Shown: piece by piece, positions 60,860 to 63,477 of the stretch
Layout of the letters: each line of letters begins with the position of its first letter
Numbering within the stretch: the first letter of the stretch is position 1
NCBI GenBank assembly: GCA_033723415.1
Contig: JAWVXD010000002.1
Location: forward strand, 128,001 to 192,000
Length of the DNA: 64,000 bases
Origin: Sulfurospirillaceae bacterium
GTDB lineage: Bacteria > Campylobacterota > Campylobacteria > Campylobacterales > Sulfurospirillaceae
Reading direction: 5' to 3'
Made by a program: the position numbers and the translations under genes
The notes under the pieces: model-generated
What the model was told of the DNA's origin: nothing
Database searches by the model: none
The model's input: only the letters and a program-made list of their open reading frames with translations

Positions 60860-62146
60860 CTATATCTCATCAGCTGTTTTCACAGAATCGATGCCGTATT
60901 TGTCTCTTAGAGTCTGGATGCAAGAGCCGAGTTTATGTTGTTTTGCATCCTGCTCATAACTCAAGATGTCATAAGATTTGTGCTTATACTCCATAAAATT
61001 TGACACACTGATACCTAGATATGTTATAGCCTGAGTTTTATGGATGTCGATCTTGGAAAACATCTCGATCATCAGTGATTTAAAGAACCTTTCGCTGAAA
61101 AGCCTTTCTATGGTTATGTTGTATTTCTCTCTAAATCCTATCTCGTATTTAATCTTCAAAAAATATGTCGTAGGATTTAGACCTAGTTTCATGATCGTAT
61201 AAGTTAGATTTCGAGCTAGAATCACCATCCTGCGTTGTACTTCATCCCGCTCGTATATAGGATCAAAAGTCCTGCTTATTCCGACTGATTTTCTAGAGTG
61301 AATCTCTCTCACTTCTTCATCATCTACTCCCATGATTCTATTATATAACTGAATACCGGGTTTTTTCCAAGAATAAAAAAGGCTTTTTGCACTCTTAATA
61401 TCACCTAATTTTTCGATACCTCTATCATTGAGTCGTTTTTTATATCCTCTTGCTAATCCGGGGAATCTATCAATCTCCATATTTTCTATAAATCTGTCCC
61501 AATCTTCAGGTTTAACTTGACGCACACCAAAAGGTTTTGCACTCTGCGTCACTAGTTTTGCAGCCCATTTTGAATTTGCAATACCAAAAGAGATAGGCAG
61601 TCCAAATTTCTCAAATATCTCATTTTTGAGATCATCGCAAAATGAAAATACATCTTCTTCTTTTATCCATCCACTTAAATCTCCAAAAAATTCATCAATA
61701 CTGTATTGTTCTAACAAAGGTATTTTTGTTTTTAAAAAGTTAGCTAACCTATGTGAGGCTTCATGATATAAAAGATGATTTGGTGATAAAACAATAAGTT
61801 TGGGACAAAGCTGTAAAGCCTCGTTGATGGTCATTCCTGTTTTGATCTTATACTTTCTTGCCTCATAAGAAGCTGTTGTGATTATACCCCTTATTTTTGC
61901 TACTCCATCAAACTTATCTACAAAGAAGTTATTGAAATCATTATTTATAATTTTTTTTTCTGAGTAAAAAACATTTGGTACAAAAGCACCGCTATTTTGA
62001 TTATATAATTTTCTTTTACTGTATCCTTTTTCAAATATGCGAGTATCGCTTCTTCCTCCAACGGCTATAGGCTTGCCTAATAAAGTTGGATCTTGTACTC
62101 TTTCACATGAAGCAAAAAAACAATCTAAGTCCATATGTATCTTCAT
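60860..62146 (-). CDS. dinB: Y-family DNA polymerase IV
   Basis: HMDLDCFFAS, ASYEAR, YSIDE, AKL...AKPFG, RKSVG. Confidence 0.92.
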   Translation of the reverse strand: MKIHMDLDCFFASCERVQDPTLLGKPIAVGGRSDTRIFEKGYSKRKLYNQNSGAFVPNVFYSEKKIINNDFNNFFVDKFDGVAKIRGIITTASYEARKYKIKTGMTINEALQLCPKLIVLSPNHLLYHEASHRLANFLKTKIPLLEQYSIDEFFGDLSGWIKEEDVFSFCDDLKNEIFEKFGLPISFGIANSKWAAKLVTQSAKPFGVRQVKPEDWDRFIENMEIDRFPGLARGYKKRLNDRGIEKLGDIKSAKSLFYSWKKPGIQLYNRIMGVDDEEVREIHSRKSVGISRTFDPIYERDEVQRRMVILARNLTYTIMKLGLNPTTYFLKIKYEIGFREKYNITIERLFSERFFKSLMIEMFSKIDIHKTQAITYLGISVSNFMEYKHKSYDILSYEQDAKQHKLGSCIQTLRDKYGIDSVKTADEI

Positions 62147-62221
62147 ACAATCTCCAAATCAATAGCTTTAAATTATCTCTAGTAACAATATTGTAATTAT
62201 CCAAATATTTGATATAATAAG

Positions 62222-62253
62222 CAAATTAATTGATAAATATATCAACTAATTTG
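62222..62253. promoter_or_regulatory. Putative operator of the S24 repressor
   Basis: CAAATTAATTGATAAATATATCAACTAATTTG, 14 of 16 palindromic pairs, between TATAAT (62213-62218) and the GGAGG SD. Confidence 0.62.
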
Positions 62254-62262
62254 GAGGAAACT

Positions 62263-62925
62263 ATGGATTTTACCAAGATAGCAGAAAAAATAAGAACTTA
62301 CCTACAACAAAAATTTAACACTAAGATATATGATTCAGATATAGCTCAAGCTCTAAATATATCTAAAGAGCACTACAGCAGATCCAAGAAAAGCAACAAC
62401 GTACCTCTAAAATCGATCATAGAATTTTGCGCAAAAGAAAATATAGTGATCAATTATATATTATTTGACCAATCACCGGAATCTTTAATACAAACAACAA
62501 ACAAGCTTATAACTATAAAATACTTCAAACATATAAATACTTCTGCAGGCGGTGGAGCTCTTAACGATAACGAGGATTTTGAATATTTGACCATAGATGA
62601 TGAATTAGTAGCTATGTTAGGCGGGGAAAACAGACTCAAATATATAGAAGCCGTCAACTCTATCGGAGATTCTATGGAACCAATCATCAAGGATAAAGCC
62701 GTACTTTTCATAGACAGGCAAAATACAAATTTACTCAAAGACAAAAAAGAGATATATGTTCTTAACACCCCAGCCGGAATCCTTGTAAAAAGACTCGATA
62801 TAACTGTTTCCGGAAAACTCAAGCTCATATCTGAAAATCCATCTTATGAAACAGAAATCATAGATATAGATGAAGTATCTATCATAGGAAAAGTTATCGG
62901 AGCGATACAAAATTTTGAAAACTAA
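62263..62925 (+). CDS. CI/LexA-like repressor: N-terminal HTH plus S24 autopeptidase
   Basis: DSDIAQALNISKEHYSR HTH, SAG cleavage site, GDSMEP (Ser), VKRL (Lys); ATG at 62263 follows GGAGG. Confidence 0.88.
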   Translation: MDFTKIAEKIRTYLQQKFNTKIYDSDIAQALNISKEHYSRSKKSNNVPLKSIIEFCAKENIVINYILFDQSPESLIQTTNKLITIKYFKHINTSAGGGALNDNEDFEYLTIDDELVAMLGGENRLKYIEAVNSIGDSMEPIIKDKAVLFIDRQNTNLLKDKKEIYVLNTPAGILVKRLDITVSGKLKLISENPSYETEIIDIDEVSIIGKVIGAIQNFEN

Positions 62926-62944: not shown

Positions 62945-62973
62945 TTGACATTGCTACTAATTAGTAATATAAT
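62945..62973 (+). promoter_or_regulatory. Consensus sigma70 promoter with an operator in the spacer
   Basis: TTGACA-17 bp-TATAAT; spacer contains the palindrome TACTAATTAGTA (62955-62966). Confidence 0.8.
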
Positions 62974-63459: not shown

Positions 63460-63477
63460 AATTACTAATTAGTAATT
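63460..63477. promoter_or_regulatory. Second putative MarR operator
   Basis: Perfect 18-bp palindrome AATTACTAATTAGTAATT with the same 12-bp core as 62955-62966. Confidence 0.75.

Follow-up and report, generated by a model that had tools for sequence, protein, structure and literature searches.

S24 peptidase repressors associated with error-prone polymerases have been described in several bacterial groups, and these provide the background for the locus reported here, in which a gene for a Y-family DNA polymerase (dinB) is divergent from a gene for a CI-type helix-turn-helix (HTH)-S24 repressor. The locus lies in a 64,000-nucleotide (nt) stretch of a Sulfurospirillaceae genome (GCA_033723415.1, contig JAWVXD010000002.1, positions 128,001 to 192,000), referred to below as the window. 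In Francisella, likewise a host without LexA, paralogs of the co-opted phage-type S24 repressor FddR form units with a divergent dinB; as described there, these units are autoregulated through a palindrome, leave recA outside the regulon and exist as plasmid and chromosomal copies (Perez-Varela et al., 2026; PMC13148647). The non-canonical LexA of the Bacteroidetes likewise combines a CI-like N-terminus with an S24 peptidase, and is reported to comprise two repressor groups with different motifs and a regulon size that varies by clade, with an Elizabethkingia copy being divergent from an error-prone polymerase and induced by mitomycin C (Sanchez-Osuna et al., 2021; PMC8565304). According to the same paper, HdiR of Lactococcus and Streptococcus is also a phage-derived S24 repressor of itself and of a Y-family polymerase, umuC, relieved after RecA-triggered cleavage, but it differs in its Firmicute phage origin, its UmuC-type polymerase and its need for Clp processing. 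UmuDAb/DdrR of Acinetobacter is likewise a LexA-independent S24 repressor of error-prone polymerases (PMC11332147, PMC7273328). According to PMC2390758, LexA and error-prone polymerases under SOS control are absent from the Epsilonproteobacteria, and S24 genes of Campylobacter fetus have been treated as prophage regulators (PMC11424552). No Campylobacterota genus is named in the accessible main text and supplement of PMC8565304, and no description of an S24-dinB system in this phylum was found in the literature open without subscription or in the supplements of the two closest papers.

The gene pair of the window is real and conserved, and represents a new family and operator set of an already published architecture. 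The novelty implied by the original prediction, which was made from the sequence of the window, was thus overstated, as the same arrangement is on record for Francisella and Elizabethkingia in the sources cited above. The two genes diverge across a 116-nt spacer (62147-62262), matching the shared promoter of about 115 bp that had been proposed, and are the only Y-family gene and the only S24 gene (one PF00717 match) of a genome of 2.43 Mb that is 100% complete. The pair sits on a 377-kb contig with cellular genes and therefore counts as chromosomal in the sense defined for such repressors in the available text of PMC8565304. It is flanked by msrA (convergent), mlaE-type genes, marR and a gene for a CDGSH protein, together with efflux- and thiamine-type genes judged from their translations. 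None of the 12 open reading frames (ORFs) around it had a PHROG match annotated as structural or integrase, so the cellular, non-phage setting that had been predicted was confirmed. The pair was kept in 11/11 loci of the window's genus although its neighbouring genes change; of the 10 other genus loci, only that of G012 also has marR beside it, and neither msrA nor marR is a conserved neighbour. Canonical LexA, also expected to be missing, was found in 0/151 genomes of the order with TIGR00498, and the window's genome (G000) contained no PF01726 LexA DNA-binding domain.

The repressor has the fold of a CI-type phage repressor. Its AlphaFold model (mean predicted local distance difference test score, pLDDT, 82.7) consists of five N-terminal helices without a wing (residues 3-18, 24-30, 35-44, 49-59 and 63-68) and an S24 beta domain, and its closest structural matches were the lambda-186 hybrid repressor, LexA, 186 and lambda CI. 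Phrog_4 matches nearly its full length (residues 5-219), and PF00717 scored 59.6 bits against a cut-off of 23.3, with both the Ser-Lys dyad and the Ala-Gly bond present. The label HTH-S24 is borne out by the five-helix model, but Pfam gives no HTH match for the window protein itself; PF07022, the phage CI HTH domain, matched 15/18 family members weakly (E at most 0.05) and the window protein not at all. It is not a canonical LexA, with a TIGR00498 score of 19 against 110.95 bits and an all-helical N-terminus in the model. The cleavage site, serine (GDSM) and lysine (VKRL) that had been read as retained correspond to S94-A95-G96, S137 and K176, which are invariant in an alignment of 18 relatives. 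SAGxG and G[DEN]SM[EY]P were present in 115/115 high-scoring homologs, and the pattern for the lysine matched 110/115. RecA-driven cleavage by this chemistry is established for LexA and CI, and by extension may apply to the window protein. The nearest phage proteins were Campylobacter and Helicobacter (pro)phage repressors with 29-37% identity over the full length. Among the viral contigs in the 18 of 64 parts scanned, only distant relatives were found, the best of them with 29% along most of the length.

Within the spacer, two operator candidates named O1 and O2 were identified (Table 1). The motif TTGAT-N6-ATCAA of the O2 type was found in 11/11 genus loci with a looser copy 21 bp upstream, the O1-O2 spacing being the same in every locus. 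If GATAAT is taken as its −10 region, dinB would have its −35 region at the right half of O1, and the two sites are predicted to cover both promoters in 11/11 genus loci. The repressor start was placed at the ATG preceded by a GGAGGA ribosome-binding site (RBS), as a longer frame of 231 amino acids (aa) would begin at a TTG inside the operator. A lambda-like reading with three 17-bp TATCAA-N5-TTGATA operators was rejected, since the spacing of the first pair varies across the genus (7 or 8 nt) and the pattern fits worse than the N3/N4 palindromes of the family.

It is quite probable, judging from sequence and its conservation, that the window encodes an autoregulated CI-type repressor which acts on two palindromes and undergoes RecA-triggered self-cleavage after damage, inducing the polymerase and itself. 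Both promoters would be held low by a repressor dimer bound at O2 and O1, sites separated by two helical turns; O1 lies over the −10 of the repressor gene and the dinB −35 as predicted, O2 just downstream of that −10. Upon DNA damage, RecA filaments would form and the Ala95-Gly96 bond would be cut, allowing dinB and the repressor gene to be transcribed. The polymerase, possibly with RecA, would copy across lesions, probably also needing RecA via its C-terminal tail, and newly made repressor would reset the switch. Binding, repression of both promoters, RecA-dependent cleavage and induction are thus what we infer for this locus.

The distribution of the repressor was determined across Campylobacterales, the phylum-level search having drawn genomes of this order only; its families are coded f1, f3 and so on, with the window's genus belonging to f1. 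The repressor was found in the window's genome and 10/11 other genomes of the genus (a tally stands at 10/12, its two misses being fragmented assemblies) and in 33/41 relatives, and an alignment-based search matched 105/151 genomes of the order. The family is nearly universal in many families of the order: a high-scoring, mostly single-copy form was present in f1, f3, f5, f7, f9, f10, f13, f15, f17 and f18. Only low-scoring copies, grouping with named Campylobacter and Helicobacter prophage repressors, were found in f11 and f24, which appear to be host-associated families, and f22 and f23 gave no repressor match. The 119 copies scoring at least 235 bits comprise 11 from the window's genus, 71 whose recognition helix reads ATMK or similar (the ATMK form) and 37 other non-ATMK copies. 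A divergent dinB was found at 11/11, 9/71 and 34/37 of these, respectively, so that the synteny is conserved well beyond the genus. The 34 other divergent loci are from f3 (10), f13 (8), f17 (9) and f21 (1), with six second or plasmid-like copies (f1, f9), and plasmids of Aliarcobacter cibarius and Sulfurimonas aquatica carry an annotated copy of this divergent cassette. Plasmids or small contigs bearing the cassette include L306, L307, L150 and L151, with transposases nearby in the two named plasmids, and in some genomes such a copy coexists with a chromosomal ATMK repressor.

The recognition helix and the operator vary together between lineages. The palindrome of the window's genus is TTGATA-N4-TATCAA; repressor promoters of f13 and f17 were found to contain TTAACA-N3-TGTTAA (16/17), and those of the ATMK form ATATTKCA-N3-TGMAATAT (65/68). 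A matrix trained solely on the ATMK repressor promoters and applied at a threshold of at least 5 bits detected sites ahead of 26/38 unlinked dinB genes, against 0/171 neighbouring genes and 32/2017 genes of the window's genome; of the 40 unlinked loci fetched, two had been dropped (a genome without the regulator and a locus beside a truncated repressor). Exact ATMK sites numbered 28 in five preselected complete genomes, against one for the reversed pattern. These included recA in all five, as well as radA (2), recG, recQ, a TIGR03916 radical SAM gene (2), comM and an integron integrase. No exact f13/f17 site in five genomes was located at recA. A larger set of 64 recA promoters, made up of 59 from two 30-genome searches (one genome being without a match) and those of the five complete genomes, showed the box in 29/37 ATMK genomes and 7/9 ATMK families, against 0/27 other genomes. 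The latter are 14 other cassette-type genomes, seven of the window's genus and six without a high-scoring repressor. It is predicted from these sites that the ATMK sister form controls a full SOS network (recA, radA, dinB and others) in most other families.

Within the window's genus, no second conserved target was found, and a two-gene switch, the minimal form, is therefore likely. In the window's genome, no site was detected at the promoters of recA, ssb, ruvB, polA, gyrA and uvrA and only a weak one at uvrB, in a check that did not properly cover radA, recG, recN, dnaN, recR and ung, for which the motif expressions missed or matched unrelated genes. The uvrB site was conserved in 0/4 relatives, and a site of the genus type preceded recA in 0/7 genus genomes. 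The exact genus pattern occurred solely at its own promoter in 3/5 genus genomes and was missed in two whose O2 spacer has a G, and none of the spacer lengths 0-10 between the palindrome halves was enriched between genes in the window's genome. The two-gene SOS substitute put forward in the original prediction is thus supported for the genus and also fits f3, f13 and f17, but understates the family, as the sister box precedes recA, radA and unlinked dinB elsewhere; the two-gene form would mark one extreme of a wider SOS system predicted for the order. By the definitions in the available text of PMC8565304, the repressor of the genus has no predicted canonical SOS network (repair, translesion synthesis and division arrest) and the window copy falls outside the functional term LexA, with no predicted repair gene beyond dinB, whereas the ATMK form is predicted to have such a network and would fall inside the term if that prediction holds. 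It should also be noted that a near-perfect ATMK-type box (23.5 bits) is present at G000:C1, about 51 nt before 236753 (+), ahead of a 780-aa gene; it may be a chance occurrence or a relic, since this genome has no ATMK repressor.

Compared with the Francisella units as presented in PMC13148647, the locus of the window belongs to another phylum, and its spacer contains neither GTG nor CAC, the halves of the Francisella operator GTG-N11-CAC. In Francisella, two species have the dinB unit as a paralog, whereas here the sole S24 gene is involved and the pair is fixed in the genus and three further families. The predicted recA-containing regulon of the sister form is another difference from the Francisella unit.

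A tree of RecA (45 rows) held f1 together with a Shimodaira-Hasegawa-like approximate likelihood ratio test (SH-aLRT) support of 96. The S24 tree, for which 70 of 132 rows were kept after thinning per family and in which deep branches are not resolved, grouped the window's genus with f21 (96/90) and the other f1 repressors with f10 and f18 (98/93), and a separate starred clade comprised the phage repressors and four second copies of f9. Topology tests were run on 49 rows (21 more being dropped as long or redundant) with a quick tree without a mixture model. By the approximately unbiased (AU) test, a clade of the window's genus with the ATMK copies of f1 was marginally rejected (p 0.043), while ATMK monophyly (p 0.34) and a tree joining the genus to the phage clade (AU p 0.21) were not. 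The divergent-type copies all fell on one unstarred side (support 80). As the polymerases of the genus also do not group with the other f1 polymerases, replacement by an incoming cassette is favoured as the probable history; the tree is unrooted, and the direction of change would need a root. A wider scheme may be offered tentatively, and is perhaps somewhat less likely than its alternatives: the family would be the missing SOS master regulator of Campylobacterales, with two states that can replace each other, a mobile repressor-dinB cassette and, on the chromosome, a recA-regulon form with a damage-induced, amphipathic micropeptide of 21-34 aa. In the window's genus, a cassette with a new helix and operator would have taken the place of the full regulator and recA control would have been lost, a collapse of the SOS regulon through repressor replacement within one family.

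Several observations weigh against the regulatory model. The left half of O1 is confounded with the consensus of an extended −10 promoter, and the dinB −10 is weak and was assigned by eye. A 6-bp arm arises in 54% of 300 shuffles of the AT-rich spacer, so that a single palindrome is within chance and the weight of this one derives from its conservation, not from the palindrome itself. A similar site precedes ilvD in the window's genome and is not conserved (weakly present in 1/5 relatives), and the element of f3 is conserved but not clearly palindromic. For the sister form, the reversed-pattern control was lenient here (22 against 2 matches at one mismatch), and most one-mismatch sites fall inside genes. 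The recA box is missing in f7 (0/3), f16 (0/1) and half of the f1 ATMK genomes (3/6), and the link between helix and recA box is not separable from kinship, as only three pairs are independent, none of them opposite (sign test p 1).

Among the alternatives, an inducer other than DNA damage and RecA, such as another stress or proteolysis, acting on the repressor at these same sites, or a Fur- or Crp/Fnr-type regulator reading the palindrome, is improbable yet the best placed. TTGAT...ATCAA does resemble FNR and Fur boxes, whose spacer lengths differ, and msrA and marR are neighbours of an oxidative-stress type. These two genes are not conserved beside the pair, however, and the lack of an enriched spacer length in the window's genome argues the same way. 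Moreover, the box changes along with the S24 recognition helix across lineages, and although an S24 protein outside the RecA paradigm has been reported (IrvR; PMC7101444, as far as its available text goes), the targets of the sister form are recA, radA, recG, recQ and dinB. Somewhat less probable is a principally UmuD-like, accessory role for the S24 protein, with its C-terminal cleavage product activating the polymerase as in Pol V, whether or not the protein also represses. UmuD and UmuD' were the top sequence matches among solved structures (E ~1e-5), the polymerase shares a RecA-NT-like tail with UmuC, and UmuDAb is a UmuD-derived repressor according to the Acinetobacter work. Yet the window protein has a full five-helix N-terminal domain, PF07022 is detectable in most of the family, the polymerase scores 73.7 against 431 bits for UmuC, and the repressor occurs without the polymerase in f7 (7/8 genomes, against 1/8 with this dinB query). 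That the S24 gene is a prophage or mobile-element remnant lying beside dinB by chance, with no cellular regulatory role, is very unlikely and largely refuted by conservation, for despite its 29-37% identity to (pro)phage repressors and the occurrence of the cassette on plasmids near transposases, the gene has cellular flanks with no match annotated as structural or integrase among 12 ORFs, the pair persists amid changing neighbours in the genus, the phage repressors form a separate clade, and the best viral-contig match in the parts scanned is a distant one.

The damage-responsive repressor remains the preferred reading, and the polymerase under its predicted control was found to be an active-type Y-family enzyme, with IMS and IMS_C domains and catalytic acidic residues; an insertion of ~40 residues splits the IMS match. 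The name polymerase IV in the original prediction holds at the level of the Y family, and public records likewise name close homologs DNA polymerase IV, but none of the NCBIfam cut-offs for Pol IV is reached by the protein (198.6 against 256 bits at best), nor is that of UmuC/Pol V. It probably belongs to the epsilon-proteobacterial PolIV-like group, with membership taken from taxonomy. This group, named for the window's class and exemplified by a protein from Arcobacter nitrofigilis, was described by Timinskas and Venclovas (2019; PMC6511836), whose available text gives no regulator for it and describes the RecA-NT tail motif as widespread in Y-family groups. An hhalign comparison of 76 polymerase tails with RecA N-termini gave a weak match (pairwise E 0.0047, probability 7.5%). 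The candidate beta-clamp-binding motif was compared with the QxxLF consensus (PMC12926913). Five f11 genomes (G067, G093, G105, G117 and G136) carry a more distant Y-family polymerase (34-37%) without a high-scoring repressor; the one promoter of these that was checked had no box.

If the model is correct, the statement on Epsilonproteobacteria in the accessible part of PMC2390758 would fit mainly Campylobacter/Helicobacter-type lineages, with many relatives responding to damage through a phage-type repressor that has been domesticated. Within one order, a minimal cassette and a full regulon would then coexist, which PMC13148647 proposes as successive stages, and helix and operator would change in parallel. 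How SOS networks arise and collapse would become testable in cultured, non-pathogenic strains, and damage-induced mutagenesis and induction of integron integrases are predicted in these lineages.

Table 1. Features of the dinB-repressor locus, with positions given in the window.
Feature	Position	Strand	Remark
Y-family DNA polymerase, DinB-like, catalytic D6 and D151/E152	60860..62146	-	428 aa, IMS + IMS_C domains
RecA-NT-like C-terminal motif of polymerase, residues ~399-422, predicted RecA contact	60881..60952	-	hhalign
Candidate beta-clamp-binding motif YDILSY, residues 392-397	60956..60973	-	likeness to QxxLF judged by eye
dinB RBS GGAG	62152..62155	-	from sequence
Predicted dinB −10 GATAAT	62196..62201	-	TTATC-like column block in genus alignment; −10 missed by consensus scan
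Operator candidate O1, TTGATA-TAAT-AAGCAA	62209..62224	.	position conserved in 11/11 genus loci
Repressor extended −10 TGATATAAT	62210-62218		overlapped by O1
Operator candidate O2, perfect palindrome TTGATA-AATA-TATCAA	62230..62245	.	downstream of repressor −10
Repressor RBS GGAGGA	62253..62258	+	from sequence
CI-type HTH-S24 repressor	62263..62925	+	220 aa, sole S24 protein in the genome
Predicted recognition helix SKEHYSRSKK, residues 35-44	62365..62394	+	helix 35-44 of model; role taken from HTH geometry
Predicted cleavage bond Ala95-Gly96	62545..62550	+	invariant
Catalytic Ser137	62671..62673	+	invariant
Catalytic Lys176	62788..62790	+	invariant, 18-row alignment

At the ATMK loci, a small unannotated ORF with an RBS (21-44 aa overall) was found to face the repressor in 53/68 cases, against 89/1655 control genes. 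Outside f5, 46/47 of these ORFs end in a hydrophobic pair, against 5/89 controls, and where ten f1 copies differ, it is mostly at third codon positions (698, against 301 at second positions). In ATMK genomes with a linked dinB, this gene comes after the small ORF. The form of 21-34 aa is amphipathic-looking, ends in LF, IF, IL or VL, is conserved across six families and was located at L209:1336-1437 (-), L207:1350-1442 (-) and 45 other ATMK loci. Other SOS micropeptides inhibit division or act as toxins, which is mentioned here only as an analogy. In f5 a different ORF of 35-44 aa occupies the same position (L219:1324-1428 (-) and five other f5 loci), with a TxAELA-like stretch that resembles a Cro-type helix. 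No Pfam match was obtained for three small ORFs tested, one of them from f5. No significant hidden Markov model match to the small ORF was found at the window locus or elsewhere in its genome (best E 0.049, not a credible ORF). As reported in PMC11332147 and PMC7273328, UmuDAb likewise has a divergent small partner gene, as in the ATMK loci and unlike the window locus, but UmuDAb derives from UmuD, not CI, and the ATMK ORFs are only 21-44 aa long.

Further ATMK operators were observed at accessory genes. The integron integrase (TIGR02249) at L217:336-1349 (-) has one about 160 nt upstream, for which LexA control of integrons is a parallel. Boxes also lie ahead of a Mor-family gene, a KTSC-domain gene, a REP-associated transposase and an ORF6N-domain gene (L206:1576-1848 (+), L232, L233, L238), which suggests mobile genes plugged into the ATMK regulon. 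In G152, the operator precedes a 79-aa HTH-only repressor paralog with an f3-like helix (L231:1201-1437 (-)), possibly a truncated cassette or a modulator. In G143, two recA matches with identical scores lie about 111 kb apart (L278, L299), possibly a duplication or an assembly artefact.

With regard to the locus itself, the repressor and dinB are head-to-tail on one strand in f16 (L143 of G056 and L156 of G096), in an operon-like arrangement. A locus nearly identical to that of the window's genus was found in a record titled Acidobacteria MAG (L039), probably a mis-binned contig. Downstream of the repressor gene, marR has a perfect sigma-70 promoter (12/12) at 62945-62973 with the palindrome TACTAATTAGTA inside it at 62955-62966, which recurs ahead of the CDGSH gene at 63463-63474. 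These palindromes are likely MarR boxes, so the marR operon is likely independent of the S24 gene.

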